Of a DNA stretch of 56,007 nt, positions 1,123 through 53,852 are shown piece after piece. The DNA is from a virus (lineage: Duplodnaviria > Caudoviricetes), in the IMG/VR virus record IMGVR_UViG_3300042389_001858, positions 1 to 56,007 of that record, one strand, 5' to 3'. Position numbers and translations under genes: made by a program. The notes under the pieces were generated by a model. It made no database searches. It worked only from the letters and a program-made list of their open reading frames with translations, and was not told where the DNA came from. Position 1 is the stretch's first letter, and each line of letters begins with the position of its first letter.

Positions 1123-1827
1123 ATGAATTGGAGATCCCGCCTCCGCGAATTGGCCGTCCGTAGTGGGAGGGCGGTGGAGTTCTCCGTAGCTTGGGCGCGG
1201 CGGCTCAATGGGTTGTCGCCCGAGGCACGGCGGCGGTTGGGGGCGTTGAGGTCGCAGACGCGGCAGACGGGTGGGAAGTTGGGGCAGGGCGCGGATTTTC
1301 GTGTGTATGAATCCTTCACTCCGGGGCGCGGACGCACGGTGACAAAGACGCTGATCCCCGAGGCGCTCCCTGAGCGGGATCAAGTGATGGCGGCGGTGAA
1401 GAAGTCTTGGGGCGAGGCGGAGGCGTCCCCGGCTGGAAAATTCGCCGCCCTTCCGGCCGGTTGGCACAAGGCCGGTTATGTGCAGGATCGCATGCTCGAT
1501 CCGCAATACAAAAGCACTTTTAGAAAAGGGTATATCCATCCCGAGAGAAAAGAAAGGGTGGTCGGCTCTCGGTTTGCCGAAAAAATCTCAAGCGGGTTCG
1601 ATCGAGGTCGCGGTGCGGCCTACAATATGCCAATGGGAGCGAATGATTCCAGTTTGACCATAAGGAGCAGAGGCACCTACGAACGCCTGCGCCGCAAAGT
1701 CCAGATCGACGCCCACAACATCATGCTCGACCCCCGTAAACGGCGCTTGGTTTTGACCGATCCGCTGGGTTGGCAATCGTCGTCCACTCAGATCGGGGCG
1801 CTCACGCCCGGACCGGCGGTGCGTTGA
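1123..1827 (+). CDS. Protein-kinase-like protein with N-terminal LRELAVRS..VEFS tag (putative head cargo)
   Basis: KLGQGADFRVY resembles a Gly-rich loop, a Lys follows in VTKTL, and DAHNIMLD...LVLTDP resembles the catalytic and Mg-binding loops. The N-terminal tag is shared with other head-region ORFs. Confidence 0.6.
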   Translation: MNWRSRLRELAVRSGRAVEFSVAWARRLNGLSPEARRRLGALRSQTRQTGGKLGQGADFRVYESFTPGRGRTVTKTLIPEALPERDQVMAAVKKSWGEAEASPAGKFAALPAGWHKAGYVQDRMLDPQYKSTFRKGYIHPERKERVVGSRFAEKISSGFDRGRGAAYNMPMGANDSSLTIRSRGTYERLRRKVQIDAHNIMLDPRKRRLVLTDPLGWQSSSTQIGALTPGPAVR

Positions 1828-1848
1828 CCAATCCCCGGTAAGCGTATG
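1823..1848 (+). promoter_or_regulatory. GTTGAC-N15-18-start motif (first copy; putative late promoter)
   Basis: TTGAC at 1824 lies 17 nt before the portal ATG. The same motif occurs with TTGAC at 4836, 5081, 5290, 11396, 11926, 15501, 18944, 26380, 34401, 40983, 41489, 42098, 50018 and 50897, and at 16735 with a 22-nt gap. Confidence 0.75.
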
Positions 1849-3570
1849 AATTTTCTCGATCGGGCGGTTTCGTTTTTCAATCCCCAGGCAGGCGTCCAGC
1901 GGGCGTTTGCGCGGGAGAAGCTCAAGGCGTTTGGATACGATGCGGCGCATCCGGGCACGGCGCGGGGCGGGAGCGGGGGGCGGAACAAAAATGCGTCCTC
2001 GGAAACTTGGCGCTCCCAGCGGGATCGGGTGCTTCTCATGTGGGATGCGCGGGATGTGGTGAGGAATTTCGCGCTCCTGCGCGGCATCGTGGCCCGCATC
2101 GTGCAGTATGTGGCCGATACCGTGCAGTATGTGTCGCAGACGGGGGATGAGGAGATCGATTCGCTCTACCAGGATTATTTCCATGCGTGGTGCGAGCGGG
2201 CGGACATCACGGGGCGTCACCGCCTCGGCGATCTGGTGTGGATGCTGGTGTGGGCGATCATCGTGGATGGCGACCACGGGTGGCATATCGTTTCCGTGGA
2301 TGAGAATGGCAAGCAAGTGCCAAAAATCCAACCCATCGAGGCCGACCGCATCGGGGATCCGAACAGCCCGATCAACCCCGGCGAGGACAACAATATCGGC
2401 GGGATTTTTGTGGATGAGATGGGGCGTCCGCTGAGCTACAAAATCTTCAAGCGCGAACGCCGCACGGCGCAGTATTCTTTTGACCGCGAGGTTCCTGCGG
2501 ATCAATTCATCCACATTTTCGATCCGCAACGGGTGGATCAATATCGGGGCGTCTCGGCCTTGGCCACGGCGATCGCGCCCGCCCGCGATCTTTACGAGAT
2601 TTACCAGTTCGAGAAAACGGCGGCGAAGTGGCAGGCGGGCTACGCAGGGTTTGTGAAAACGCCCGATCCCACGCGCGGCGATGGGGGCGTTTCCGCTTGG
2701 AATGGCACGACTACCGGCAAGCCGGGTGCCTCGCCCATGGGCCTCATGGAAGTGGCCCCAGGAAAAATCCAACGCCTCGCGGCGGGCGAGGATATCCAAT
2801 TCGCCCCCGGCACGAGCCGTCCGGGCGGGGCGTTCATGGCGCTGGTGCAGGTGATGGTGCGCGAGATTTCCAGCGGGCTGAATATGCCGTATGGGTTCCT
2901 TTATGACATGACGGCGTTCTCGGGCCACACGGGGCGCATCGAGATCGCGCAGGCGATGCGCGGCATTCGCCGGATGCAAAAACTCGTCGGCGAGAGAGCA
3001 TTGAATCCCGTGCGGGATGCGGTGATCGGCTACGGCATCGGCATGGGCGAGTTGCCGCCGCATCCGCAATGGCGTAATGGCCGGTGGGGCTTCGGGCGTT
3101 CCCTCACGGGGGACTACGGGCACGATACCACGGCAAATCTCCAGATGCTTCAGAACGGCCTTGTCACGGCCAGCGATTTGATTTCCGAGACGGGGCAGAG
3201 TTTCGAGGAAGTGGTGAGGCGCAGCGCGAGCGAAGTGGCGTATATGCAACGGGTCGCCACCGAGACGGGAGTTCCGATCGAACTCTTCAACCAGCGGATT
3301 CCGAATCCCACGCAAGCCCTCGCCGCGATGGCCGAGCCGCCGCAACCCCCGCCGCCGGGCCTCGTCCCGCAAGGTATGGATGTGAAGCCGCTCTTGGAGT
3401 TGCTGAAAAATGTGGGCGAGGGGATCATTGATCGGGAGAGCGCGATCATCAACTTGATGAATCTCTACGGCGTGGAACGAATGGCGGCGGAAAAAATGGT
3501 GCCGGACGGGCCGGGGGAGAAGAAGGGTTTGACCGCGGAGGACGCGGAGAACGCGGAGCGTGGGAAATGA
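1846..3570 (+). CDS. Phage portal protein, lambda family
   Basis: ARDVVRN, IEADRI, HIFDPQRVDQYRGVS and RLAAGEDIQF are typical of lambda gpB-type portals. Position is upstream of the head genes. Confidence 0.92.
   Translation: MNFLDRAVSFFNPQAGVQRAFAREKLKAFGYDAAHPGTARGGSGGRNKNASSETWRSQRDRVLLMWDARDVVRNFALLRGIVARIVQYVADTVQYVSQTGDEEIDSLYQDYFHAWCERADITGRHRLGDLVWMLVWAIIVDGDHGWHIVSVDENGKQVPKIQPIEADRIGDPNSPINPGEDNNIGGIFVDEMGRPLSYKIFKRERRTAQYSFDREVPADQFIHIFDPQRVDQYRGVSALATAIAPARDLYEIYQFEKTAAKWQAGYAGFVKTPDPTRGDGGVSAWNGTTTGKPGASPMGLMEVAPGKIQRLAAGEDIQFAPGTSRPGGAFMALVQVMVREISSGLNMPYGFLYDMTAFSGHTGRIEIAQAMRGIRRMQKLVGERALNPVRDAVIGYGIGMGELPPHPQWRNGRWGFGRSLTGDYGHDTTANLQMLQNGLVTASDLISETGQSFEEVVRRSASEVAYMQRVATETGVPIELFNQRIPNPTQALAAMAEPPQPPPPGLVPQGMDVKPLLELLKNVGEGIIDRESAIINLMNLYGVERMAAEKMVPDGPGEKKGLTAEDAENAERGK
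3532..3558 (+). repeat. 3x 9-bp tandem repeat (NNCGCGGAG) encoding TAEDAENAE at the portal C-terminus
   Basis: accgcggag-gacgcggag-aacgcggag. Confidence 0.7.
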
Positions 3571-4544
3571 AACTTTCGGATACGGAAAAAGCGGTTTTCC
3601 GTCATTATTATCGCAAGCTCAAGAAGCTGACGCGCAAGGGCGGGCTTCGTGACGGAAAGGCTGAATCGCTTGGGATTGGCGGCGTTATGCCTGATATGGC
3701 GTGGAAGGATAAGGCAGCCGGGTTATTATGGCGGGGGGCAGGGCGGCAGGAAATTGAGAAACTGGCTGGGGATGGAAGATTTGTAAGCCAATGGTCGCAC
3801 GCGCTTGGAAAGTCCAGAACCTATACAGCAAGTCTTCCTCGCCGTGCTGCTGGGTATGCCGAGAGCAAATCCGACCCGCGAGTTTATGCTATTTCTCCAA
3901 CGGCATTCAAAAGATCCGATGAACGGGTTCGCCAAGTAAACCACTCTCCAAGCACCACGGCCCCGATACGCGGCGGCATTTTCCGGCATGAGGTTCGTGG
4001 CATTCTCAAGGGATCCGATGGCGGCGCGGACGAGTATGGTCGGAAAAAAGTGCGCTGGCGGCCAGCCTCTTTGGGCGATGTTCAGAATCGGAATTTCTCC
4101 GCCAAGCTCCGCATCAGGGCTCTATGTGCCAAGCTCCGCTTGGTCGAGTTTGGCTACACGAAGCCGGGGTTGCGGGCGCGGATCAAGGCGCGGATCATGG
4201 CGAGTTCCAAGGGCGGGCGTCCAGGCCAATGGAGTGCGCGGAAGGCTCAGCTTGTGGCGCAAGAGTATCGGGCCGAGGGCGGTGGCTACAAGGGCGGCAA
4301 GACGGAATCCCAGAAATCCCTCCGCAAGTGGACGCGGGAAAAGTGGCGCACGCGATCCGGCAAGCCCAGCACACAGGGAAGCGAGGCTACGGGCGAGCGA
4401 TACCTGCCCGACAAGGCGCACAAGAGCCTTTCGCCACAAGAGTATGGGGCCACGACTCGCGCCAAGCGGGAAGGATCGCGGCGCGGCGAGCAATTCGTGA
4501 GGCAGCCCGAGCGCATCGCCAAAAAAACGGCACGGCACCGATGA
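3567..4544 (+). CDS. Two-module basic protein with a DUF5872-like C-terminal domain after an internal tag (putative head cargo)
   Basis: The linker FSAKLRIRALCAKLRLVEFG (4095-4154) is followed by YTKPGLR..SSKGGRPGQWSARKAQL..GGGYKG..ERYLP, which I recognise as the DUF5872-type family. Confidence 0.7.
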   Translation: MKLSDTEKAVFRHYYRKLKKLTRKGGLRDGKAESLGIGGVMPDMAWKDKAAGLLWRGAGRQEIEKLAGDGRFVSQWSHALGKSRTYTASLPRRAAGYAESKSDPRVYAISPTAFKRSDERVRQVNHSPSTTAPIRGGIFRHEVRGILKGSDGGADEYGRKKVRWRPASLGDVQNRNFSAKLRIRALCAKLRLVEFGYTKPGLRARIKARIMASSKGGRPGQWSARKAQLVAQEYRAEGGGYKGGKTESQKSLRKWTREKWRTRSGKPSTQGSEATGERYLPDKAHKSLSPQEYGATTRAKREGSRRGEQFVRQPERIAKKTARHR

Positions 4545-4744
4545 GCGACCACGCCGACGAGTTGTATTTTTTGTTGAATGATGCGATCTCGTATCTGCAC
4601 CACCATGGGCACGGGGAAAAGGCCCGACAGATACAAAAGGATCGGGACAAGATTATGGAGAGCATTGAGTGGTTTCCAGCGCGCGGCAGCGAGGGCGGCT
4701 CGCCACTAAGTCGTGGCTCGGGGCGGGCGAGTAGGCGTTCGTAA
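4541..4744 (+). CDS. Small hypothetical protein
   Basis: ATGA overlap with the upstream stop. The 3' third overlaps the predicted RNA structure. Confidence 0.45.
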   Translation: MSDHADELYFLLNDAISYLHHHGHGEKARQIQKDRDKIMESIEWFPARGSEGGSPLSRGSGRASRRS

Positions 4745-4835
4745 GGACGGTCCGAGGCCCTTACTCGACGCGGTGCAAGCCGCGCTTTATCGAGGAAGCG
4801 CATCGAGCGGCCGAGCGACCTGGCCCGCGCGCTGG
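4676..4835 (+). ncRNA. Candidate structured RNA (multibranch, GNRA tetraloops)
   Basis: Perfect 11-bp closing stem 4676-4686/4825-4835. Inner 8-bp stem 4728-4735/4760-4767. Hairpins cgttc-GTAA-ggacg, cgcggt-GCAA-gccgcg and gcgag/ctcgc. Confidence 0.5.
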
Positions 4836-4856
4836 TTGACTTTCGGGATATTCATC

Positions 4857-5084
4857 GTGAAAACACAATCCCTCTCAGCCAATCAATCGAAAAAGTTCAG
4901 CAAGACAATTCGCCTCCCCGAGGGGTGGGTGGGGCCGCGCGAGCGGCGGTGGTTTGTGGAGTTGAAGGCCGATATGGCGCGCGCCGAGCAATACTTTTGG
5001 CGACAAACTCCAGAGCGGCGGAAAGTCCAGAGGGAATACTTGAGGGGCAAGACTTGGGGGAATAACAACTTTTGCTTCAGTTGA
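4857..5084 (+). CDS. Small basic hypothetical protein (GTG start)
   Basis: GTG lies 16 nt after GTTGAC. The stop TGA falls inside the next GTTGAC. Confidence 0.6.
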   Translation: MKTQSLSANQSKKFSKTIRLPEGWVGPRERRWFVELKADMARAEQYFWRQTPERRKVQREYLRGKTWGNNNFCFS

Positions 5085-5100
5085 CTGGAGTGTTGGCGGT

Positions 5101-8100
5101 ATGTCGCTGCCGCTGATTGAAAAAGCCTACGATTTATACAAGACAAAAAAGAAACGGCCCTGGGCGTTTAAGAAGGCCGCGGATTCTGCGAAACTGCTAA
5201 GCCCTGCGCAGAGTGCCCAGCTGTTCAAGTTGGCAAAAGGCATGAGGAAATCGGCAAATCCCGAGCTTTATCCCGAGCAGATGCGGTTGTTGACGGTGGG
5301 GCGCTCGGGTATGAAGTTGCGCGAATTTCGTTATTACCCCTACCCTGGCAATCCTTACGATAAGGATTTTGCCCAAGAGCGTGAAAAGGAACGGCGGCAC
5401 GGGCTGATCAAGGCCGGGTTGGTGGGGGCGGGCTTGCTGGGTGGCGGCGCGCTGGTGGGGCGCGGGTTATTTAGGGCGGGCGTAAGTGCTGCTGCGCGTC
5501 GTGCCGATGACTTGGCGCGGGAGGTTGATTTTCTGAAAACTGCGAAAAAGGCCGAGAAATTGGATGAGGTCGCCCCTGCCGCAAAGTCCCGCAAGCCGAT
5601 CAAAGTCGCCGCCACGCCTCCGCCCGCTCCGAAAACGACGCTGCCGCCGCCTCCGCCGCCAGCGCCTCCCGCCGCGGTGGATAAAAGCATCCAGGCTGAG
5701 GGGCGCAAGCGCGCGCCCGTGCAGACGAAGGCCATCGAGCAGTTGAAGGACAGCGGCCAGATCAGTCAGTCCGATGCTACCGCCGAAATCCAAGAGATCG
5801 TAGCCGGAGCAAAGCCTACGCGTAAACTCACTCCAAGGCAACAGGTTTTGGCAAAGCGGCAAGCGAAGGTCGCTAAATTCGCGTCTGCCCAATCGTCGGC
5901 TGCTCCTGCGCCCGCCGTTCCGAAGGCGCCCGCGCCTCCCAAGGCGAAGCCAAAAGCGGCGCCCGCGCCTGTTCCCGCCGCGCGCGCGAGTGATGAGTTT
6001 TGGGAGAAGGAGGGTCTTGGCAAGGTTCCGCTTACAGGCACGCCCGAGCAGAACGCCGCCCTGCGCAAAAAGTTGGAAGAGACTTATGCCGCCGGGGGAT
6101 TCAAGGGAAGGGTCAAGGGCGATGTGATCGATGATGTTCGTGCATCCCTGGCAAAAGCGGGTGAGTCAGCTGGAAAATCCGATTTTCCGCCGGGACTCAG
6201 CGAGGCGCTTCGGCAGGAGGCGAAGAAAAGCAACCCGCCCAAGGCTGCCAAAAAATCCAAGAAATCAAAAGCTGAGGATGATGATTTGGATGATCCGGGC
6301 GCCTCTCCTGAAGAGGCGGAATGGGAGGAGGCTCTTAATAAAAACCAAAAACCAGAGCCGAAATCCAAGTCAAAGGCGTCCAAGGCCCCCGCTAAAGGCG
6401 AGAAGCTTTCCTACGCAGAAAAAATCGCCGCCCGCGTCAAGGCGAAGCGCCAAAAGAAAAAAAATCTCGCCGACCGCCTACGCGGCATCCGGTATTTCAA
6501 TTTTCAGACCGACGAAGGCGGCATTCCTTTCACCGGCAAGGTGGCGAAAGACCGCTTCATTAAGCAAATTCGCGATCAGGACTTGCGCCGCCGCGATTCC
6601 AATCTGCTTCGTGCCGGTGCGGCGGGGGCTTTGGCCGGGGTGCTTTTCCGCGGCAGGCTTTCCATGGGCAGGCGCGCGCTGATTGGGGCGGGTTTGGGTG
6701 CCGGAGGAGTGATTGGCACGAGGGCGATCACTGATCGCACCCGCGATGTTTACGGCGAACGCAGCCACGAGGCCATGCGCGCCGAAGCCCTCCCGGCCAT
6801 TGCCGGACTCGGCACCGCCGGATGGCTCGCCACCCGCCGCATCCGCGGCCTGGCCGCAAAGTTTCGCGGGGTGAAGGAGTTTTCGATTCTCAATAAAATC
6901 TCCAACCTCACCGGCATGGCGCAAATCAAGGCCGGGCGCGAGGCTTTGGAGAAGGCGAAATCGAATAGGCAATTGAGAGATATTTATCGCGCCGATGCCA
7001 TCAAGCAGAATAAGTTCCCTTACAGAGATTCTGACCTTCAGTATGAGATCGAAAGTGGCATGAGGCATAGGGCTATTGCCAGAGGCACTTATGCTAAGTA
7101 TGATGTCCGGCGAGCCAGAAACCTCATCAACGAAGGCATCCGCCGCCGCAACATTTCCATCGGAGTCGGTGCGGGAGTTGCAGGTTTAGGCGCGGGGGCG
7201 GGGTATCTCGCCACGCGCAAGGAATCCAACCTCGCCGCGAAGCTGCGCGGCTTGAAAGAATTCGAGGACTACAAGCTCTACTACTTCAAGGGGCGCAACA
7301 CCGGCATCGCGGCCCGCAGTGCCGATGAGGCCCGGAAGAAGAAAAAGCGTGGCGGCGACGAGCTTGTGGCCGTGCGCACTCCGAACAAGACGGAACGCAG
7401 TCAGATGGCGCGAGGCATTTGGGTTCGCACCCGCCGCGATGGCAAAAGCCCCGGTCAATCCCGCTACGGCAAGGGGAGGGGACAAGGGCCAGCCCGCAAG
7501 AAAGAAATGTCCGCCAAATTTTTCGAGAAACGCGATAAGGAAAAAGGCGGGCTGAATCCCTATGTGGGCGCGGCGTTGTCGGGCTTCGGCAGCGGAGCGG
7601 CCTTGGGATCGCTGGCCCTGCTTCGGCGGGGTGCCACATTCCGCAGCGCGGCCAAGACGGCTGGAAAGCTCGGTCTGGCCTCGGCGGGAATCGTCGGCGG
7701 CGGAGCGTTGCTCGGCAGCAAGATCATCGGAAATCCCAGGGATGACGAAAGCGCGCCATTTACCAAGCGGGCCGCCATCGGCGGAGCCTTGGTGGGATCG
7801 GGCGCTGGATTGGCCGGTGCGCTCCTGCTTCGTCGGACCAAAGGCGGCGCGAGGGCGCTGGTCGGAGCATCCAAAAAAACCGAACCTTTTTCTCGCCCCG
7901 CCATGTGGCTTCGTAAAACGCCTCTCGCAGGCGCGGCGGGCATCGGCGCTCTCGGTGGTGCGCTCTACGGCGGGGCCATGGGCGCGGACGAAGGCCAGCA
8001 AGTCGATTCCATTCGCAATCTGCGAAAGGATTTGAAGAAGGAAATGTCCGCCCGTCTCCTTCGCGCGCGTCTGCGGCTGTTTGGTCGGGGGGATCAGGCG

Positions 8101-8976
8101 CGGTGGGATGCGCAGGGAACGAATGAAGATGCCCGATTTGCTAATACCGCCTGGGGGTGGGCTGTGGATCGCCCGATGTATATCCCGAGGCGCGACAAGC
8201 AGGGGCGTGTCGTCAAGGATCCGATCACAGGCGAAGCCATGCGCCAGCGTTGGGAGGCGAATACTCCGCAACTTTGGAATTCCGTAGCCCGCGAGGCGGG
8301 GCGCCAGCGCGTGAATGTGCAGCGCGGAGGCAGACTCTCGCGCGATGTTTTTGATGAAATGCGGGGCGCGCCCCGCCAGCGCGATGCCAGCGGGCGCATC
8401 AAAAAGCGCGAGTGGGAGAAAAGCTGGTTCCAGAATAAAGCCACGGAGATCGGGCTCACGGTAGCTGGATTGGGAGGGTTGGGGGCCATCCGCTACGCGA
8501 ACAACAATCCCGACACCAAGGCGGGCCGCGCCTGGCGCAATACCCAATCGAGTCTGCGCACCACCAAGGACAATCTCGCCGAGATCGGCTCGGCCATCAT
8601 GCGTGGAGCCACGAGCATCACCGCCAGGCGGCGGTTCTCCGCGAAATTGAGGAAACTTCGCGAGCTGGATGCTTTTGCCGAATACCAGGGATGGGATGTC
8701 CGCGATCCGCGAGGCCGCTCCGCCCGCGTCTTCGCGCCCGGCAGCCGCCGCCGCGAGCGCCGCCCCAAGGAGTGGCATGAAAAAACGGAAAACGAGCGCA
8801 AGCTCTGGAAAGCCGGATTGGTCGCCAGCGCGTTGGGTGGCGCGGGAGCAATGCTGGTTGGGCAACGCCTCGTCTCCGGGAAGTCGCTTGTGCCTTCGCG
8901 GTTTCTGCCGAAGAAGCCCGTGATCGATCCCGAAAAGGTGGTGACGGGCGTGAATTTCAAAAAAGGAGCCGCATGA
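5101..8976 (+). CDS. Large modular polyprotein of tag-separated basic and glycine-zipper modules (putative internal head/ejection protein); second start at 5311
   Basis: Tags at 5311, 6466, 6850, 7231, 7504, 8041 and 8635. Several GxxxG hydrophobic segments and a Pro/Ala/Lys-rich disordered region. Confidence 0.75.
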   Translation: MSLPLIEKAYDLYKTKKKRPWAFKKAADSAKLLSPAQSAQLFKLAKGMRKSANPELYPEQMRLLTVGRSGMKLREFRYYPYPGNPYDKDFAQEREKERRHGLIKAGLVGAGLLGGGALVGRGLFRAGVSAAARRADDLAREVDFLKTAKKAEKLDEVAPAAKSRKPIKVAATPPPAPKTTLPPPPPPAPPAAVDKSIQAEGRKRAPVQTKAIEQLKDSGQISQSDATAEIQEIVAGAKPTRKLTPRQQVLAKRQAKVAKFASAQSSAAPAPAVPKAPAPPKAKPKAAPAPVPAARASDEFWEKEGLGKVPLTGTPEQNAALRKKLEETYAAGGFKGRVKGDVIDDVRASLAKAGESAGKSDFPPGLSEALRQEAKKSNPPKAAKKSKKSKAEDDDLDDPGASPEEAEWEEALNKNQKPEPKSKSKASKAPAKGEKLSYAEKIAARVKAKRQKKKNLADRLRGIRYFNFQTDEGGIPFTGKVAKDRFIKQIRDQDLRRRDSNLLRAGAAGALAGVLFRGRLSMGRRALIGAGLGAGGVIGTRAITDRTRDVYGERSHEAMRAEALPAIAGLGTAGWLATRRIRGLAAKFRGVKEFSILNKISNLTGMAQIKAGREALEKAKSNRQLRDIYRADAIKQNKFPYRDSDLQYEIESGMRHRAIARGTYAKYDVRRARNLINEGIRRRNISIGVGAGVAGLGAGAGYLATRKESNLAAKLRGLKEFEDYKLYYFKGRNTGIAARSADEARKKKKRGGDELVAVRTPNKTERSQMARGIWVRTRRDGKSPGQSRYGKGRGQGPARKKEMSAKFFEKRDKEKGGLNPYVGAALSGFGSGAALGSLALLRRGATFRSAAKTAGKLGLASAGIVGGGALLGSKIIGNPRDDESAPFTKRAAIGGALVGSGAGLAGALLLRRTKGGARALVGASKKTEPFSRPAMWLRKTPLAGAAGIGALGGALYGGAMGADEGQQVDSIRNLRKDLKKEMSARLLRARLRLFGRGDQARWDAQGTNEDARFANTAWGWAVDRPMYIPRRDKQGRVVKDPITGEAMRQRWEANTPQLWNSVAREAGRQRVNVQRGGRLSRDVFDEMRGAPRQRDASGRIKKREWEKSWFQNKATEIGLTVAGLGGLGAIRYANNNPDTKAGRAWRNTQSSLRTTKDNLAEIGSAIMRGATSITARRRFSAKLRKLRELDAFAEYQGWDVRDPRGRSARVFAPGSRRRERRPKEWHEKTENERKLWKAGLVASALGGAGAMLVGQRLVSGKSLVPSRFLPKKPVIDPEKVVTGVNFKKGAA

Positions 8977-9623
8977 CCGATCCCCGTCCCCGCAACAACC
9001 AGGGTCAATTCGCCCCGCAGGGCATGGACGGCATCGATGCCAACACCACATCCACGGCCTACAATCCGCAACTCATCGAGCAACGCAAACTCTCGCTGAT
9101 CGAAAAAATCCGCCGAATGCGCGGCGTGCGCAATGGCGTGGAGGAATCCGTGCCGCAGCAATTCTCCATGAAAACAAAACTCCGCCTGCGTGAACTGGCT
9201 CGCCAGACCTTTGATCCCTACGCTCCGCAACCCGCCCAACCTGGGCAGGGATCGCAGGATTTCCGCAATGCGGCGATCGGTATTGGCGCTTTGGGGGTGG
9301 GTGGCGGCGTGGCCTATGCCGGATGGCGCGGAGCGCAGGCCGCCAAGAGCGCGCAAGTGCTCACGGATGATGCGTTGAAAACCTCTGCCGAGGCTCGCAA
9401 AGCGGCTCGATCCGCCCGAGTCGCCGCCGCCCGCATGGGTCGCGCAGGCAAAGCAATCAAGACCCAACTCACCACTTTCCCGACATTCCGCAAAGCCGGT
9501 GGCGCAATCCGAAAGGCGCTCCGCTTCGAGGCTGACCTGGGGAGGTTGAGGGAACTCGCGGCCAGAAGCGAGCTGGCAAATGAAATGCGACGCCAGCGAA
9601 ACGCGGAGGCGAAGAAGAAATGA
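8973..9623 (+). CDS. Tagged basic protein with a glycine zipper (putative head cargo)
   Basis: PRNNQGQF motif, tags FSMKTKLRLRELA (9162) and FEADLGRLRELAARSELA (9525), and a GIGALGVGGG segment. Confidence 0.7.
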   Translation: MTDPRPRNNQGQFAPQGMDGIDANTTSTAYNPQLIEQRKLSLIEKIRRMRGVRNGVEESVPQQFSMKTKLRLRELARQTFDPYAPQPAQPGQGSQDFRNAAIGIGALGVGGGVAYAGWRGAQAAKSAQVLTDDALKTSAEARKAARSARVAAARMGRAGKAIKTQLTTFPTFRKAGGAIRKALRFEADLGRLRELAARSELANEMRRQRNAEAKKK

Positions 9624-10633
9624 AAAAACAAACCTGGGCCTCGATCGCCCGCGATAGCGCGGAGAAGGCGCACAAGACCGAAGTGGATTCGCTCAAGGCG
9701 AAGCTCGCGCAATACGCGCAAACGGTTTCCGATCTGGAAAAGCAACTCGGCATCGCTCTCACGCTCGGCAAGGCGAAGGTGAAGTCGCGCGCCATGGAGG
9801 TTTCCATGCAGGACAAGGCCGAAGCCGTGGCCGTGGCCCTGCTCTCGGATGTCCACGCCGAGGAGGAAGTGACCAGCGCCTCCGTGAATGGCTTGAACGA
9901 ATACAGCCTCGCCATCGCCGAGGAGCGCATGGCGAAATTTTTCCGCACCACCGCCCGTCTCACCGAGATCGAGCGCGGCGGGGCTAAGATCGACACGCTC
10001 GTGCTCTGGCTTGGGGGCGATTTGTTCTCGGGAATGATCCATGAGGAACTCATGGAAACCTCCAAAAAAACGCCCACACAGATGATCCTCTGGCTGCAAG
10101 AGCGGCTCATGGAGGGCATCGCCACGCTGAAGCCGCATTTCGAGAGAATTTTGGTTCCCACCTCGTATGGCAACCACGGGCGCACGACCAAGAAGCCCCG
10201 TCACGCCACGGGGGCCGCGCACTCCTACGAGTGGCTCATGTATAAGATCCTCGAAGGCCGCTACGCCTCGGACAGCCAGGTGGAGTGGCAGGTGGCGGAT
10301 TCGTATTTCAACTATGTGAATCTTTACGGCAGGACGCTGCGGTTCCACCACGGGGACAATCTGAAATACAACGGGGGCATCGGCGATATTTCGATCAGCG
10401 TGAACAAGGCGATCGCTTCCTGGAACAAGGGCGCGAACCGTGCCGACCTCGATATTTTTGGGCACTGGCACCGGTATATGCAGCACTCGAACTGGCTCTG
10501 CAACGGATCCGTGATCGGATACAACGCCTTTGCCTTGAGTATCAAGGCTCCCGCAGATGAAGCGCCCTGTCAGACTTTCTTCCTCTACGATAAAAAGCGC
10601 GGGCGCACCGTCACCTCCCCGATTCTTCTGTGA
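9620..10633 (+). CDS. Calcineurin-like metallophosphoesterase
   Basis: All five motifs are present: SDVH, GGD, GNHGR, FHHGD, FGHWH. N-terminal coiled coil. Confidence 0.88.
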   Translation: MKKQTWASIARDSAEKAHKTEVDSLKAKLAQYAQTVSDLEKQLGIALTLGKAKVKSRAMEVSMQDKAEAVAVALLSDVHAEEEVTSASVNGLNEYSLAIAEERMAKFFRTTARLTEIERGGAKIDTLVLWLGGDLFSGMIHEELMETSKKTPTQMILWLQERLMEGIATLKPHFERILVPTSYGNHGRTTKKPRHATGAAHSYEWLMYKILEGRYASDSQVEWQVADSYFNYVNLYGRTLRFHHGDNLKYNGGIGDISISVNKAIASWNKGANRADLDIFGHWHRYMQHSNWLCNGSVIGYNAFALSIKAPADEAPCQTFFLYDKKRGRTVTSPILL

Positions 10634-10645
10634 ACCCACACGCCT

Positions 10646-11113
10646 ATGCCAGACTGGAAAAAACTCCTCGCCGATCAACAGCGCCGCAAATACTCAAACG
10701 ATCCCAACCGCCAATGGAGCACCTATTCCAGGCAGGGCTGGGAAAAGGCCGAGCGCATCGCCGAGGAGTTGGATTGCAATCCCAACCAAGTCGGTGTGCT
10801 TTTGAAGGACAGCATTCAAGCCAAGCTCATCGAGCGCGAGGAATTCATGATTTGGAACCGAGAGGCCGATCGTCTTGAGAAGGTGGTGGCCTTCCGGAAG
10901 GTTCGCCCCGGGCAGCAGGCTGCGGGCGCAAAGGCCAAGCCTGTAAAAATGCCAAAGCCGGCGGCAGGAATGCGGGTGCGCAGCCGGCGGGGCCACTTCG
11001 GGAAAATCAAGTCCATCTCGGGGTCGAAGTGTGAAATTGTTTGGGATTCGGGAACAATTACCAATCCGGGGCTGAAGGCCTTTAAAAAAAGAGACATCCT
11101 TGTGGAGCCATGA
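10646..11113 (+). CDS. Hypothetical protein (possible HTH plus SH3-like C-terminus)
   Basis: 155-aa ORF in the operon. IAEELDCNPNQV resembles an HTH; GMRVRSRRGHFGKI..EIVWDSG resembles an SH3/KOW fold. Confidence 0.6.
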   Translation: MPDWKKLLADQQRRKYSNDPNRQWSTYSRQGWEKAERIAEELDCNPNQVGVLLKDSIQAKLIEREEFMIWNREADRLEKVVAFRKVRPGQQAAGAKAKPVKMPKPAAGMRVRSRRGHFGKIKSISGSKCEIVWDSGTITNPGLKAFKKRDILVEP

Positions 11114-11116
11114 GCC

Positions 11117-11386
11117 ATGAAAAAAAAGCAGGCGAGCGGCGGCAAAAAAGAAAAGGGACCGTGCGAGAATCGGCGGGAAATCCTCGAGGCAATCAAGAGC
11201 CAGCTTGCTGAGCATTTTGATGCCGGGGTGGGCATCGTGTGCTATGAGCAGTCTGCGGAAACGCATTTCTTCACCTTCCAGTTTGGAAACTCGTTTGCCG
11301 TGGAGGCGATGGGCAACAAGCTGCAAGAAACCATCTCCGAGTCTTCTGCGGATGATGATGGCGACGAGGAGGAGGAAGAGGATTAG
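11117..11386 (+). CDS. Hypothetical protein with an acidic tail
   Basis: 89-aa ORF filling the gap before the protease gene. Confidence 0.6.
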   Translation: MKKKQASGGKKEKGPCENRREILEAIKSQLAEHFDAGVGIVCYEQSAETHFFTFQFGNSFAVEAMGNKLQETISESSADDDGDEEEEED

Positions 11387-11417
11387 CCGTTTTCGTTGAC
11401 GCGCCCCGGTATGGGGC

Positions 11418-12731
11418 ATGGCAGACCTTAAAGAATTTTTTGCTCCGTTCGTTACGCAGAAGGTCGATCCGTCCAACGGAATCATCTATGGCGTTTCGGT
11501 GATCACCAGCGGGATCAAGGCTCGCGGGCACGATCTCGAAGTCGATGCCACGACCCTCTCGCAAATCAAAGAATGCGCCGAAAAGCTCGGCACCGTTCCC
11601 GTAAAGTGGAACCACCGCACCGGCGCGGATGCCGTGGCCGGGTATCTCGAAAATTTCCGCATCGAGGGGGGGAAGCTCCTTGGTGATTGGCACCTTCTTA
11701 AGACCCACGCGCAATACGGCCAGGCTATTGAAATGGCGCAGCGCATGCCGCGCAATGTGGGCCTCTCCGCCGCGTTTATGGGCGAGGATGAAGTGAGCGG
11801 CGGTTCCAAAAAGGCCCGCTGTTCCGAACTGATTTCCGTGGATCTCGTGGCGCAACCCGCCGCGAACCCGAACGGGCTCTTCGAGGCGAAGCTCCCCTCC
11901 GATCCTACGGAACTTGCCTCACAAGTTGACACCTCCACTTCTAACCGTATGGATCAAAACACCAACACCAACACCAACGCAGCGGCGGCCGAAGAGCCTT
12001 CTATGAAGGATGTCCTGGCGGCCCTGAACAAGCTCACTGAGCAGGTTACTGCACAGCAAGAGTCCATCGCCGCACTGCAAGGTGCGGGCAATCAAGATGC
12101 CGAGGAGATTTCCCTCGAAGAGATCATGAATCTCTCCGACGAGGACATCGCCCAGCTTCTCCAGGCCGGTGAAATCACCGAAGAGGACGCCGCCGGGATC
12201 AAGGCTTATCAAGCCGAAGTCATCGCCGCCGTCGAAGCCGAAGAGGCTGGCGAAGGTCAAGAGGACAAGGGCGAACTCGCCACTGCTGGAGCCGCCGCCG
12301 ATGGCAGCGATAGCTCCTCCACCGGCTCATCTGCCGAACTTTCCGCACTTCAAAAGCAGGTCAAGGAACTCAGCGCCCGTTTCGAGCGCGAAGATGCCGC
12401 CGCCGAGAACGCCGAAATCGAGCACTACTTTTCCACCATCGAGGGCAACCTCACCGCGCTGGCCGAAGAGAAGGCCAAGCTCACCGAGTTGAGCGAAAAG
12501 CTCCAGGCCGAGAACGAGGCCCTGCGCCACGCGGTCAAGACCGGCACCCGTCCGCTGGCGTTCAGCGCTGAGGGTCGCGCCACCACTGGCAGCCAGGGCG
12601 AACTTCACGAGTTTGATGCGCGCGTGAAGGCCCACACCGACTCGGGCAAAACCCACGCCCAAGCGGTCATGCTGGCTCACAAAGAAAATCCCGAAGCCCA
12701 CCAAGACTGGATTCGGAACCAAAACAAGTAA
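11418..12731 (+). CDS. Prohead maturation protease fused to scaffolding domain
   Basis: The N-domain has KWNH, GLSAAF and SVDLVAQPAANPNGLF (HK97/assemblin-type His/Ser pattern). The C-half is an acidic coiled coil. It lies just upstream of the capsid genes. Confidence 0.85.
   Translation: MADLKEFFAPFVTQKVDPSNGIIYGVSVITSGIKARGHDLEVDATTLSQIKECAEKLGTVPVKWNHRTGADAVAGYLENFRIEGGKLLGDWHLLKTHAQYGQAIEMAQRMPRNVGLSAAFMGEDEVSGGSKKARCSELISVDLVAQPAANPNGLFEAKLPSDPTELASQVDTSTSNRMDQNTNTNTNAAAAEEPSMKDVLAALNKLTEQVTAQQESIAALQGAGNQDAEEISLEEIMNLSDEDIAQLLQAGEITEEDAAGIKAYQAEVIAAVEAEEAGEGQEDKGELATAGAAADGSDSSSTGSSAELSALQKQVKELSARFEREDAAAENAEIEHYFSTIEGNLTALAEEKAKLTELSEKLQAENEALRHAVKTGTRPLAFSAEGRATTGSQGELHEFDARVKAHTDSGKTHAQAVMLAHKENPEAHQDWIRNQNK
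11949..12731 (+). CDS. Nested in-frame scaffolding protein (own start)
   Basis: An in-frame ATG lies 18 nt after an internal GTTGAC, at the protease/scaffold boundary. Analogous to lambda C/Nu3. Confidence 0.7.
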   Translation: MDQNTNTNTNAAAAEEPSMKDVLAALNKLTEQVTAQQESIAALQGAGNQDAEEISLEEIMNLSDEDIAQLLQAGEITEEDAAGIKAYQAEVIAAVEAEEAGEGQEDKGELATAGAAADGSDSSSTGSSAELSALQKQVKELSARFEREDAAAENAEIEHYFSTIEGNLTALAEEKAKLTELSEKLQAENEALRHAVKTGTRPLAFSAEGRATTGSQGELHEFDARVKAHTDSGKTHAQAVMLAHKENPEAHQDWIRNQNK

Positions 12732-12749
12732 CCAAGGAGAAAAAATACC

Positions 12750-13106
12750 ATGAATTTCAACAATGTTGTTTCGCTCCCCGCCGCCGCTGATTTGCGTGGC
12801 AAGGAGCACACCGCCGTCAGGCTCACCGCAACCGGCGTCAATATCGCCGGAGCCTCCGATCGGGTCATCGGCACCGTCATTCGCGGAGCCAATACCGGCG
12901 ATGCGGCGGATGTGTTTTTGAAGGCCGAGGGCCTTCGCTATGTCCGCGTCGGCAATGCCACTGCAATCGCGATTGCAGACGAACTCGAGCAGGCCGCCAA
13001 TGGCGAATATGTCAAGAAGACCACAGGGGCGACCGCCGCTCTCGCGCTCGAGGCGGCTCCTGCCAACAGCAACGGCGGCGGAATGATCCGCGCCATCCTG
13101 CTGTAA
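12750..13106 (+). CDS. Head decoration / capsid cement protein
   Basis: 118 aa, Ala/Gly-rich, located between scaffold and major capsid genes. Confidence 0.7.
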   Translation: MNFNNVVSLPAAADLRGKEHTAVRLTATGVNIAGASDRVIGTVIRGANTGDAADVFLKAEGLRYVRVGNATAIAIADELEQAANGEYVKKTTGATAALALEAAPANSNGGGMIRAILL

Positions 13107-13136
13107 CGATCACCACAACATCAAGGACCAACAACC

Positions 13137-14096
13137 ATGCCTTACAATACCACAGATTCCGTTCCTCGGCAGGATATCAGCACTCTCCTCATGGAGGCTG
13201 TCCACCAGGAGAAACACTACATCGCCCCCATGCTTCTGCCCATCTACGGCAGCGAGCGCGAGGTCGGTCGCTATCCGAAATTCACGATCGGCAAGTGCGA
13301 GCTTCTCAAGCGCGAGAGCCAGAAGCGCGGAGCCACCGGCACTTACAACGAGAGCGAAGAACTCTTCGAATGGGACAGCTACCAGACCGCTGAATACGGC
13401 CACGAGAAACGCATCGATGATGTCGTGCGCAAGCAAATGCGCGACTTCTTCGACGCGGAAATGGTCACGGCCAAGTTCTGCTCGAACAAGCTGATGCTGG
13501 ATTACGAAGTGGAGGCGGCTACCGCCCTCTACAATCCCTCAACCTTCACCGCCACCTCGGCGGGCACCGCCTACACCGAGGCGAACCTCGACACCATGGA
13601 TGTCCCTGCGGATATCAATGCGCTCATCGAGTCGCTCACCCTCGTCGGCGAAGAACCGAACACGATGGTCCTGAGTCTCCCGCTCTTCAACCGCATCAAG
13701 CGCTCGAAGAAGCTCCAGACCTACCTCTACGGCCACCTGAACACCACGCAGGGCGGCTCGAACATCACCAGCCAGATCATTGCCGACGCCTTTGGCATCG
13801 CCAATGTCATCGTCGCCAAGAAGAGCCACGACAACGCCATCAAAGGCAAAACCAATGTCGTGCCCGTCTGGTCGAACAACTACATCTGGATCGGCGATGT
13901 GCAGGGCGGCGACTTCATGAACGGCGGCGCTGGCCGCACGATCATCTGGGATGCCGACTCCGAAGGCGGTCTCTTCACCTCGGATCAATACCGCGACGAA
14001 GCCCGCCGCGGCGACAAGATCCGCGTGCGCAGCAACCGCGTGATCAAGATCATCAACCCGAATTCGGCCCGTCTCATCACGACGAACTGGGCCTAA
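13137..14096 (+). CDS. Major capsid protein
   Basis: 319 aa with EPNTMVLS and strongly C-ending codons. Position follows scaffold and decoration genes. Confidence 0.85.
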   Translation: MPYNTTDSVPRQDISTLLMEAVHQEKHYIAPMLLPIYGSEREVGRYPKFTIGKCELLKRESQKRGATGTYNESEELFEWDSYQTAEYGHEKRIDDVVRKQMRDFFDAEMVTAKFCSNKLMLDYEVEAATALYNPSTFTATSAGTAYTEANLDTMDVPADINALIESLTLVGEEPNTMVLSLPLFNRIKRSKKLQTYLYGHLNTTQGGSNITSQIIADAFGIANVIVAKKSHDNAIKGKTNVVPVWSNNYIWIGDVQGGDFMNGGAGRTIIWDADSEGGLFTSDQYRDEARRGDKIRVRSNRVIKIINPNSARLITTNWA

Positions 14097-14102
14097 CCGG
14101 AT

Positions 14103-14140
14103 GGAGGGGGCCGCTTAGCCGGGCTGCGGCGGCTCCCTCC
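14103..14140 (+). other. GC-rich hairpin after the capsid gene (mRNA stabiliser or processing site)
   Basis: ggagggggccgc pairs with gcggctccctcc. No long U tract follows. Confidence 0.55.
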
Positions 14141-14152
14141 CCACTCTTTCAC

Positions 14153-14226
14153 CGCAGGATAGAGAAATGGTATCTCACAAGGCCCATAACCTTGGGTTTC
14201 GGGTTCAACTCCCGATCCTGCTACCA
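14153..14226 (+). tRNA. tRNA-Met(CAT), initiator-like
   Basis: Cloverleaf cgcagga-ta-gaga/tctc-caagg-CCCATAA-ccttg-tcggg-TTCAACT-cccga-tcctgct-A-CCA. The C1:U72 pair is unpaired and CCA is encoded. Confidence 0.88.
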
Positions 14227-14245
14227 CCTTCCACACCACAACCGC

Positions 14246-14280
14246 TGGCAGACCGGTCCCGCAAGTCTGCCATTTTTTTT
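14246..14280 (+). terminator. Intrinsic terminator
   Basis: tggcagac/gtctgcca 8-bp stem followed by T8. Confidence 0.8.
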
Positions 14281-14799
14281 ATGAAGAAACTCGACCTTAA
14301 GACCAACCTCCGCGAACTCGCGGCACGCTCCGAAAAACTCAAGGAATTCGCCATGGTGCGAGCCGCCGATGGCCGCTTCATCGAAGTGGACGAGGAGGAT
14401 GCGGGCATGAGTGCAGGCACGGCGATCAAAGCCGGAGCCGGAGCTGCCGCCTTGGGTGGCGCAGGCTACGGAGCCTACCGTGGCCATCAGGCAATCATGG
14501 GCAAATACGGCACTCGCGGCTTGCTCGAAAACATCGATCCCAAGCTCCCTGCCGCCTACGCCAAGACTTCCGCCGCAGGCACCGCCGCCGCTTCGCCGAT
14601 GCAGGCCTACCGCTCCGCCGCCACGGATCTCGGCAACACCATTTCCAGCCGCGCCAGCCAAGGCTTGGCCGCCGGCAAAACGGCTTATGCCCGCCTCGGC
14701 GACCGCGCCACAGCGGCAGCCAAATACCCTGGCTTCACGCTCGGCCGCATCGGCCGCGCCATCCGCAAGGGCCTCGGCGCAGCGCTCAAGCTCCGCTGA
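14281..14799 (+). CDS. Tagged glycine-zipper protein (putative head cargo)
   Basis: Starts MKKLDLKTNLRELAARSEKLKEFA. Contains RAADGRF and GAGAAALGGAGYG. The ORF-track start at 14167 lies inside the tRNA and is rejected. Confidence 0.75.
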   Translation: MKKLDLKTNLRELAARSEKLKEFAMVRAADGRFIEVDEEDAGMSAGTAIKAGAGAAALGGAGYGAYRGHQAIMGKYGTRGLLENIDPKLPAAYAKTSAAGTAAASPMQAYRSAATDLGNTISSRASQGLAAGKTAYARLGDRATAAAKYPGFTLGRIGRAIRKGLGAALKLR

Positions 14800-14802
14800 T
14801 CC

Positions 14803-15012
14803 ATGAACCTTAAACTCCAACTCCGCGAACTCGCCGCCCGCTCCGAGCGGGTGGTGGAGCTGGGTGCTGGCGCAAATATTGCGAATCTTATGCCCACCAA
14901 TGCAGACAGGGCGGCTGCCCTGCCTAAGGCTGCGGCTGCTGATAAAAAATTGGCCGATATTAAAAAGGGGCTTCTCGAGCGAATCGCGCAGAATCAGACG
15001 CAAAAGAAATAA
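14803..15012 (+). CDS. Small tagged protein (putative head cargo)
   Basis: Starts MNLKLQLRELAARSERVVELG. Confidence 0.75.
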   Translation: MNLKLQLRELAARSERVVELGAGANIANLMPTNADRAAALPKAAAADKKLADIKKGLLERIAQNQTQKK

Positions 15013-15019
15013 TTTGCCC

Positions 15020-15337
15020 ATGAACCTCAAAACTCAACTCCGCGAACTCGCCGCCCGCTCGCAGCGGGTGGTGGAACTGGCGCGTGGGGATTTTGCGATC
15101 CCGGCCATGAAGAAGCTTCTCAAAAAAGGCATCGGCAACGGGGGCGACCCTGTTTCGATCGCGGAGATCGGCTCGTCTGGAACCACGGTTCCTTCCTTGC
15201 GCGGCAATGCAGCCAATGTCCGCCGCGCCTTGAATAAATTCTGGGAAAGCCCGCATTCCATGGCCGAGGCCGAGGGATTGATGCGCGGAAACCGCAAATG
15301 GGCCGCGCAGACGATCCGCCAGGCGCGCAGGCGTTAA
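15020..15337 (+). CDS. Small tagged protein (putative head cargo)
   Basis: Starts MNLKTQLRELAARSQRVVELA. The first ~60 nt are nearly identical to the 14803 gene. Confidence 0.75.
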   Translation: MNLKTQLRELAARSQRVVELARGDFAIPAMKKLLKKGIGNGGDPVSIAEIGSSGTTVPSLRGNAANVRRALNKFWESPHSMAEAEGLMRGNRKWAAQTIRQARRR

Positions 15338-15421: not shown

Positions 15422-15462
15422 GCCGCCAGCGGCTCCTCCGAACCACGGAGGCGGCGTTTTTT
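15422..15462 (+). terminator. Probable intrinsic terminator
   Basis: cctccg/cggagg stem, extendable by gccgc/gcggc, followed by T6. Confidence 0.6.
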
Positions 15463-15520
15463 GATTTCGGATTTCAAATTTGAATTCAAATTCCCCGGCG
15501 TTGACCCGCGGCGCGCGGGC

Positions 15521-15961
15521 ATGGCGAATGTAAACAAGGTGATTCTCATCGGGAATCTCACGCGGGATGTGGAGTTGAAGTCCACGCCGAAGGGAACGGC
15601 GGTGGCTTCCGGCTCCCTGGCGATCAACCGTAGCTACAAGACCGACCAGGGCGAGAAGCGCGAGGAGACGACCTATGTGGATGTCGAATTCTGGGGCCGC
15701 GTGGCGGAGATCGTGGCCGAGTATGTGAAAAAGGGGAATCCGCTCTATGTCGAGGGACGGCTCAGGCAGGAAAGCTGGGAGGACAAGGAGACGGGCAAAA
15801 AGCGCGCCCGCTTGAAAGTGGTCGCGGAAAACATCCAACTCCTCGGCTCCCGCAACAAACCCGCCGCCAAGCCAGCGGAATCCGAATCCGATGGCGCGCC
15901 CGAAGAATCCGGCCCGATGTCCCGCCAGGTGGGGCCGCTGGATGAGGACTGCCCGTTTTGA
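15521..15961 (+). CDS. ssb: Single-stranded DNA-binding protein
   Basis: MANVNKVILIGNLTRDVE, YVKKGNPLYVEGRL and an acidic DEDCPF tail. Confidence 0.95.
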   Translation: MANVNKVILIGNLTRDVELKSTPKGTAVASGSLAINRSYKTDQGEKREETTYVDVEFWGRVAEIVAEYVKKGNPLYVEGRLRQESWEDKETGKKRARLKVVAENIQLLGSRNKPAAKPAESESDGAPEESGPMSRQVGPLDEDCPF

Positions 15962-52281: not shown

Positions 52282-52532
52282 GATACTCGGTCCTCATGGC
52301 GGAGCGGCGCGGGGCGGCAACCATCGAGGAAGCCGAAAAAATCGTTGGCGGTTGCGGGATCCTCGGCCTGCTTCGCAAGGCGGGTTGGCTTGCGCCGAAG
52401 GTGCAGGGCAACCGGCTTACCCTTTTTGACTATGACGACTGCCTCGCCGCGTGGAAGCGCCTGTGCGCGGAGGGCATCGAATCCCTGCGGCGGGCGGCGC
52501 AGCAAAGGCCCGCTCGATCTCTCCGTCGTTAG
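52278..52532 (+). CDS. Putative excisionase / winged-helix protein
   Basis: Small and basic with a TIEEAEK..AGWL.P..LTLFD pattern; converges on the integrase. Confidence 0.5.
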   Translation: MRYSVLMAERRGAATIEEAEKIVGGCGILGLLRKAGWLAPKVQGNRLTLFDYDDCLAAWKRLCAEGIESLRRAAQQRPARSLRR

Positions 52533-53559: not shown

Positions 53560-53566
53560 GGGTCAT

Positions 53567-53838
53567 TTTATAGCAAAATTTTTATAGCAAATCCAATTTT
53601 TACTTGGGGCGACATGAACCGACATGGACAAGACCCGGAGTGCGAAACCGGACATTTTTCGCACGCGCGCCGCACCTATCGCGGCGAACCAATGCCCCGC
53701 AGAGCCACTATTCATGCGGTTCCGCGGGCGACACGCCCGCTCCGAAAAGGAGCGGAGCCTACGGGGCTCGAACCCGCAACCTCTGCCGTGACAGTTCATG
53801 GCTTGTGTAGGCTTTATAGCAAAAAAAATATAGCAAAA
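53567..53838. promoter_or_regulatory. attP arm-type repeats (4x TATAGCAAA)
   Basis: Direct-repeat pairs at 53567-53591 and 53813-53838 flank the tRNA-like core. Confidence 0.75.
53752..53794 (-). other. attP core: 3' half of tRNA-Asp(GTC)
   Basis: The minus strand reads ctGTCacggcagaggttgcgggTTCGAGCcccgtaggctccgc. No D-arm or 5' acceptor strand is upstream. Confidence 0.88.
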
Positions 53839-53852
53839 TCGGAGGTGCGGGC

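Follow-up and report, generated by a model that had tools for sequence, protein, structure and literature searches.

In bacteriophage T4 the internal proteins bear an N-terminal targeting sequence of ~10 residues that guides them into the core and is then cut off, as described in the available sections of two papers (PMC9958956, PMC5694885). The T4 protease gp21 is itself held in check by nine N-terminal residues that block the active site and are removed by self-cleavage (PMC9958956, same sections), and the proteases of T4, phiKZ, 201phi2-1, and SPN3US all cut after Glu, according to the available text of PMC5694885. Here we describe a peptide that recurs in otherwise unrelated proteins around the head genes of a tailed phage, the IMG/VR virus record IMGVR_UViG_3300042389_001858. 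The whole stretch analyzed (called the window below) is a linear record of 56,007 bases having an estimated completeness of 58%, and all coordinates are those of the window. The peptide, or tag, is a real signal common to unrelated proteins and is found only in the head module, as a first-pass annotation of this DNA had suspected. It is also conserved among the members of a phage family. It works as a joint between protein modules and is selected as protein, not as DNA.

The repeated peptide in the window

The first-pass annotation had quoted 14 copies of the peptide, and all 14 were found in place and in frame with long plus-strand open reading frames (ORFs). One copy had been misread as an N-terminus: that at 5311 is internal, lying at residues 70-76 of the 1291-residue ORF 5101-8976. 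Further copies were seen at the N-terminus of the protease described below (11427), as a tag-like stretch within its scaffold part (~12339-12386), and as a truncated duplicate at 83-118.

Shuffle tests upheld the claim that the peptide is more frequent than the Arg/Ala/Leu-rich composition of these ORFs predicts, whether a 5-mer, a profile, or the end motif was counted. The 5-mer LRELA occurs six times in the six-frame translation, each time in a plus-strand coding frame (1141, 9186, 9546, 14308, 14821, and 15038). Low-complexity strings aside, it is the commonest 5-mer in the set of 60 ORFs (five copies), a count reached by none of 300 residue shuffles. A hidden Markov model (HMM) of the tag was built from 34 tags taken only from related phages, with the window rows removed (an earlier HMM seeded on the window copies was overfitted and was discarded). 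The relatives-only HMM gave seven window matches of 13.8-28.8 bits (at 8626, 14812, 14308, 15023, 1138, 9531, and 9174), all seven in plus-strand coding frames between 1138 and 15023, whereas 20 shuffles of the six-frame set gave nothing better than 9.9 bits. The tagged proteins and the protease together contain the end motif [LIVM]-x-E-[FL] 18 times versus 3.4 ± 1.7 expected, a fivefold excess seen in none of 1000 shuffles. Elsewhere its frequency is that expected (3 versus 2.8 in the other head-region ORFs and 18 versus 16.7 in the rest of the window). No HMM match above 2.9 bits lies outside 1138-15023, in keeping with the statement that tail and early genes lack the peptide, although for early genes this is a weak test because the window contains few of them. 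Seven of the 14 copies (4095, 5311, 6466, 6850, 7231, 7504, and 8041) are degenerate and do not rise above chance in the relatives-only HMM. We accept these copies because relatives keep the same joint ahead of the same downstream module.

At the DNA level the copies vary freely. The 37 LRELA copies present in the window and in nine non-duplicate loci of relatives (L002 and L012, which duplicate L001, were left out of the count) are written in 29 different 15-nt strings. Codon choice is free and, given this variety, selection acts on the peptide rather than on the DNA. The only close DNA pair among the tags is 14801-14863 and 15018-15080 (89% identical). That pair, together with the abundance of Arg, Ala, and Leu in the ORFs, is what speaks for compositional chance or a translated DNA repeat as the origin of the peptide. 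We rejected this origin and give it next to no credence in view of the shuffle tests, the absence of the motif from the other five frames, the codon variety, and the conservation of the peptide in 12 + 39 loci of relatives (twelve found via the capsid protein at 72-91% identity and 39 via the protease profile).

The tagged genes and the protease gene are as follows.

1123-1827, plus strand: tagged 234-residue protein; N-terminal long tag at 1123-1182 (HMM score 16.5 bits)
3567-4544, plus strand: 325-residue protein with an internal joint at 4095-4151 and a DUF5872-like C-terminal module after the joint
5101-8976, plus strand: 1291-residue head polyprotein of eight modules with seven joints
8973-9623, plus strand: 216-residue protein with two tags, 9162-9197 and 9525-9575 (13.8 and 14.7 bits)
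11418-12731, plus strand: prohead protease plus scaffold, 437 residues, called from its predicted fold
14281-14799, plus strand: small tagged protein with a Gly-zipper-like payload; N-terminal long tag at 14281-14349 (24.6 bits)
14803-15012, plus strand: tagged protein of 69 residues; N-terminal long tag at 14803-14862 (26.7 bits)
15020-15337, plus strand: small tagged protein; N-terminal long tag at 15020-15079 (17.3 bits)

A tRNA-Met gene at 14153-14226 confirms that position 14281 is a true gene start.

The peptide as a joint between modules

The short form of the peptide, h-S-A-[KR]-L-R-x-h-[KR]-E-[FL] (h, hydrophobic), has 11-13 residues. The long form, found at N-termini and at some joints, reads [SA]-N-L-K-x-x-L-R-E-L-A-A-R-S-x-x-h-x-E-[FL] and adds A-A-R-S plus a second h-x-E-[FL]. 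In 17 copies of the long form, which stand before at least five unrelated payloads, there is no variation at L, R, E, L, A, R, or the final E. When the tag is N-terminal the initiator Met replaces the first hydrophobic residue. The peptide is most likely a short helix-like, amphipathic segment. A Tat or Sec signal was rejected, as by inspection no twin-Arg plus hydrophobic core lies behind the peptide.

In the 1291-residue protein the joints begin at 5308, 6466, 6850, 7231, 7507, 8044, and 8635 and precede the same modules in relatives. The joint at 8635-8667 has the top HMM score (28.8 bits) and heads the most widespread module (m7), which was seen in 32 distinct contexts in relatives. The residue preceding m7 is Phe or Leu in 21 of these contexts, and such a residue lies within two positions in 27. 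Likewise, homology to modules m2-m4 (20, 3, and 5 contexts) and to the 15020 payload (six contexts) begins directly after Phe/Leu in 22 of the 23 relative contexts in which this could be detected. Relatives have the last module of the giant protein in an internal position in each of its 32 contexts. The joint at 4095-4151 scores only 5.8 bits in the HMM, and an equivalent joint stands before the same DUF5872-like module in L021. Many joints begin with Phe, which is unable to initiate translation, and the idea that joints are internal start codons was therefore rejected.

Genes that are separate and N-terminally tagged in the window are found in relatives as modules fused through the tag into polyproteins. 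Cleavage of the fusion products into separate proteins would lead one to expect such an interchange of gene and fusion at the tags. The 15020 payload is an internal polyprotein module in five of its six distinct contexts among relatives. The module behind the 6850 joint is part of the giant protein here and of the next gene in L005, L007, and L008. There it follows a different joint dialect, such that one payload can stand behind a basic joint (the window) or a His/Gly-rich joint (those three loci). At the first tag of the 8973 protein, relatives insert additional modules exactly at the tag. In the 1123 family the N-terminal tag is present in all 16 members (the window protein and 15 homologs) and the residues ahead of it vary. 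These comparisons modify two earlier claims. The peptide had been read as an N-terminal targeting tag, which fits four copies in the window, but the tags of relatives are mostly internal joints and some are C-terminal. The payloads had been called a swappable effector set. They are indeed exchanged between positions and between genomes at the tags, but effector is only a putative label, as the payloads have no Pfam family.

The wording of the peptide changes with the clade. In some relatives a His/Gly-rich insert is found in place of the basic middle, both ends being unchanged. Note that this stretch (H and G alternating with E or R) occurs in joints of L005, L007, and L008 and at the N-termini of proteins P0243 and P0247-P0249, where it stands either in place of the tag's basic part or ahead of it; it might bind metal. 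More distant clades (protease 35-55% identical) have the same architecture with dialects of their own, all of which open with h-S-[AS]-[RK] and close with h-x-x-[FL]. The middle of the joint is acidic in several of these clades, with no Glu before the final residue. Joints number nine in L038, six in L042, five in both L039 and L051, and four in L035.

All 19 modules in the tagged proteins of the window are basic (K+R 13-40%). Seven of them contain a Gly/Ala-rich run, 15 or more residues long, that lacks charged residues, and many modules are membrane-like. Comparison of all pairs of the 19 modules gave a single pair at E (expectation value) ≤ 0.01, which was a weak match. Behind the long tag there are 78 distinct payload starts that fall into 12 clusters, two of which are dominant. 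Neither Pfam nor PHROG gave a family for the 1291-residue polyprotein, the polyproteins of eight relatives gave no Pfam family (one sub-threshold match only), and no Pfam domain was found in the 120 tagged proteins listed of 195 matching at E ≤ 10 in a word-indexed search. The Atlas structure neighbors of the 1123 payload were protein-kinase clusters having template modeling (TM) scores of 0.50-0.56, which are below the bar for naming (the predicted local distance difference test score, pLDDT, of the model was 0.55), and one Atlas feature match was to a Kinase-PolyVal cluster. The AlphaFold2 (AF2) model of this payload was poor (pLDDT 49) and gave no Foldseek matches, and its 16-member family retrieved nothing relevant in Pfam at E ≤ 1. 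A kinase-like 1123 payload is only a lead. As a separate observation, a module lying between two joints in L008:3956-5731 contains H-E-x-x-H, a motif of the zinc-metallopeptidase type, and matches no Pfam family.

The protease-scaffold protein and the proposed role of the peptide

Prohead proteases having the gp21/herpesvirus fold include MEROPS families S77, S78, and S80. The product of the 11418 gene had been called the prohead protease, and its predicted structure agrees, being that of the T4 gp21/herpesvirus fold joined to a scaffold-like coiled coil. The layout is a protease domain (residues ~14-146), an acidic linker, and a coiled-coil scaffold. In the AF2 model, made with a 24-row alignment, the N-terminal domain is beta-rich, the acidic linker is disordered, and there is a helix of 72 residues. 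Foldseek ranked T4 gp21 first (probability 1.00) with herpesvirus proteases next. VIA-align matched the model to T4 gp21 (5jbl_B) with Z 11.0 and a root-mean-square deviation of 3.6 over 130 of 164 residues; the next entry had Z 6.8, the herpes proteases falling at Z 5-6.8. Residues H66, S117, and D142 are invariant in 24 homologs and are the putative catalytic triad. None of the 120 listed homologs of the protein has a Pfam domain. The protein begins with the end motif of the tag (h-K-E-F, residues 4-7), which is shared with close homologs. Distant homologs have x-E/H-F at the equivalent place, behind an N-terminal extension of varying length. Near residues 308-323 the scaffold part has a conserved stretch that resembles the tag. 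To the eye, the N-terminus of the protease looks like the tail of the joints of its own clade.

The reading we favor, which we consider about evenly poised between right and wrong, is that the shared peptide is a combined address-and-cut signal for head assembly and maturation that is read by the head protease. In this scheme the tag marks small head-module proteins at their N-termini and head polyproteins at their joints. The tagged proteins and polyproteins would be assembled into the procapsid alongside the protease-scaffold protein, and the N-terminal copy of the end motif may, by analogy with T4 gp21, keep the protease inactive at first. The protease would then cut at or beside the joints, taking off the leaders, freeing the modules, and degrading the scaffold at its tag-like site. 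More speculatively, the freed basic and partly membrane-like modules might remain with the DNA and exit with it at infection. We favor an address-and-cut signal because joints replace gene borders, because the conserved neighboring protease itself carries the motif, and because leaders persist even where there is nothing upstream to separate.

Several points weigh against this scheme. Cleavage and packaging are steps that we infer and ejection is speculative. Several distant relatives have few joints or none, and the Glu preceding the final Phe/Leu is not kept in distant clades. A T4-style cut after Glu cannot be general because the joints of these clades lack that residue, and the scheme needs a protease specificity other than the Glu specificity known from gp21-type enzymes. 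Tags also occur at C-termini or close to them, where little or nothing follows (9525-9575 in the window and the ends of ORFs in L008 and L042), and a pure leader model does not account for these. The protease assignment comes from a predicted fold of mean pLDDT 69, neither Pfam nor PHROG matched the 11418 protein at the thresholds used, and a PDB sequence search with the protease profile found only coiled coils. Finally, in a crude BLOSUM 7-mer test of the likeness between protease N-terminus and joints of the same locus, none of 16 loci passed the bar of 10/200 shuffles (the best, L039, scored 18/200).

There is also a bolder version of the address-and-cut reading. Here temperate Verrucomicrobiota phages would have a plug-in cargo system in which a helix of ~12 residues is both address label and cut mark. 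Any module behind the helix, whether a gene of its own or part of a polyprotein, would be loaded into the procapsid and then freed by a gp21-fold protease that is directed by Phe/Leu rather than Glu and whose specificity drifts with the label in each clade. We regard this version as tentative and more doubtful than not.

Some of the same observations suit other accounts. The occurrence of tags at N-termini, within chains, and at C-termini, with several copies per protein, would be readily understood if the helix served for docking without cleavage, that is, if it bound the capsid interior, the scaffold, or the portal and thereby loaded the attached protein in the manner of an encapsulin cargo-loading peptide, the polyproteins staying whole. 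The terminal Phe/Leu and the hydrophobic spacing are better conserved than the putative P1 Glu, as docking would have it, and the similar stretch in the scaffold could mean co-assembly by mimicry. However, docking has no need of a peptide placed exactly at module borders or in place of gene borders, nor of a conserved protease gene that adjoins the tagged genes and starts with the end motif, and we consider it improbable, if worth keeping in mind. Alternatively, the peptide could be no signal at all but a structural linker, an amphipathic interface helix set between the membrane-like Gly/Ala-rich segments of ejection or membrane proteins, inherited by duplication and convenient as a recombination joint. 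The Gly/Ala-rich runs of seven modules, the basic character of all 19, the shuffling at joints, and the lack of any payload of known family are in its favor. It is unlikely, though worth weighing: the tag is also carried by proteins that lack such segments (1123, 14803, and 15020) and by the protease, free codon variation makes for poor DNA homology in recombination, and the 1123 family keeps the tag unchanged between variable flanks.

Cleavage by a host enzyme was also considered. In staphylococcal phage 80alpha the N-termini of the capsid and scaffold proteins mimic the leader of ribosomal protein L27, which is cut by Prp. A short leader that ends in an aromatic residue followed by Ala gives the tag a superficial likeness to such sites. 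However, Peptidase_Prp (PF04327) was found neither in the phage record nor in any of five Verrucomicrobiota metagenome-assembled genomes (MAGs) containing relatives, which are possibly incomplete (a control search found it in 3 of 14 reference genomes). Moreover, the phage has a head protease of its own, as judged by predicted fold. A Prp-type host site is thus very improbable.

Gene order, host, and comparison with known systems

The left 15 kb of the window is the head module and the remainder consists mostly of tail and fiber-like genes, almost every gene being on the plus strand. The genes other than those listed above are as follows.

115-1116: ORF without an assigned role, first in the head module
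1846-3570, plus strand: portal protein of the lambda family (PF05136, E 1e-51; phrog_21)
9620-10633: metallophosphoesterase/exonuclease-like gene (phrog_284), followed by two small ORFs
12750-13106, plus strand: small head protein, decoration- or scaffold-like (phrog_673, E 1e-8)
13137-14096, plus strand: major capsid protein lacking a delta domain (phrog_1005, E 9e-30)
14153-14226, plus strand: tRNA-Met (CAT), among the tagged genes just 3' of the capsid gene
15461-15961: SSB gene (PF00436); head-tail connector genes are also found here
52417-53559, minus strand: tyrosine integrase (PF00589, 45.3 bits, E 2.5e-13)

The metallophosphoesterase/exonuclease-like gene and the SSB gene lie inside the head module and are both untagged. 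The tRNA-Met (CAT) gene is at the same place in all five relatives checked (L001, L004, L006, L007, and L008). A 108-nt direct repeat (100% identical; 1-108 and 1041-1148) stands on either side of ORF 115-1116. Its left copy comprises the final 76 nt of the frame of an upstream paralog plus a truncated start of the 1123 tag, which runs on into a stop at 116-118; the repeat may reflect duplication of a cassette, or two variants joined during assembly. Outside the head module, 36109-39507 encodes a protein of 1132 residues with five RCC1 repeats and five He_PIG Ig-like domains that is probably a fiber or adhesin, and the 503-residue plus-strand ORF 52345-53856, which overlaps the integrase gene, is probably not a gene. 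In relatives, inspection by eye suggested an intein-like insert in a terminase-like ORF (L040:1088-4057) and a GIY-YIG-like ORF between the polyprotein and protease genes (L042:9014-9931).

The portal family and the temperate nature of the phage had both been claimed from the sequence, and the lambda-family portal and a tyrosine integrase are present. The protease profile matches 16 GTDB contigs, the best being from a Spartobacteria bin (82% identity), and 15 of the 16 are contigs that, from their taxon names, we take to be Verrucomicrobiota MAGs. One GTDB match sits within a contig of 1.95 Mb. The integrase, together with the matches in Verrucomicrobiota MAG contigs, makes a temperate lifestyle plausible. 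The capsid profile had no matches in GTDB genomes. In cultured phages the capsid protein has relatives of only 22-24% identity and the tagged protein searched had no match; to our knowledge, Verrucomicrobiota is a phylum with almost no cultured phages. The dialect of the window is narrow: 70 cluster representatives among 1.84 billion matched at E ≤ 0.001, of which about nine have the tag at the N-terminus. If the proposed mechanism is correct, these proteins would give a view of what Verrucomicrobiota phages carry into their hosts.

The closest likeness is to the T4 capsid-targeting sequence and gp21. In T4 a short shared N-terminal peptide is borne by unrelated head-internal proteins (IPI-III and Alt) and a protease of the same fold adjoins. 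The T4 protease, too, bears a short peptide at its N-terminus, and cut-like sites are present in the scaffold, as given in the available sections of PMC9958956 and PMC5694885. In contrast to T4, the peptide is longer here (11-23 residues) and is mostly an internal polyprotein joint, although it can also be C-terminal, and the polyproteins reach ~1700 residues with up to nine peptide copies in one protein. The phage is also of another kind, temperate with a lambda-family portal and a capsid protein lacking a delta domain, and the presumed P1 Glu is not kept family-wide. In phiKZ and SPN3US a gp21-like protease (gp175 and gp245, respectively) recognizes a short motif at which it cuts many proteins of the head and of ejection, with several motif copies in the propeptides, according to the available parts of PMC5694885 and PMC10052503. 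As described there, the motif is A/S/G-x-E, of only three residues, and long N-terminal propeptides are removed, whereas here conserved 12-residue joints separate swappable modules in a genome about a quarter the size.

The polyvalent proteins (Iyer et al. 2017, PMC5512222, available sections) are similar in being large, multi-module products of late or head genes that are shuffled and are thought to be packaged, processed, and delivered with DNA. They differ in being strings of recognizable effector domains that often include a metallopeptidase of their own. In our system no module matches Pfam and a single conserved joint peptide separates the modules; a polypeptide with at least two recognizable effector domains was found neither in the window polyprotein, nor in those of eight relatives, nor among the 120 listed tagged proteins. 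Another point of comparison is the encapsulins, in which a short peptide with alternating hydrophobic residues loads unrelated cargo into an HK97-fold shell. Most encapsulin cargo-loading peptides, however, sit at the C-terminus, and they bind directly to the shell without being cut. Our search of open-access full text found no literature on a joint peptide of the present kind.

We read the system as a variation on the T4 capsid-targeting and propeptide principle. If that is correct, tailed phages can encode polyproteins with a defined joint as the source of their internal head proteins and ejection proteins, and a short portable peptide becomes a candidate tool for loading foreign proteins into HK97-fold capsids. 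Should the more tentative plug-in cargo version hold, the system would be what encapsulin cargo loading looks like in a phage, and at the same time a polyprotein strategy occurring naturally in a tailed phage. If the T4-like reading holds, the system would stand beside T4 as a second, independent, and far more modular case of capsid targeting, found in a temperate phage that is small and has a lambda-type head.

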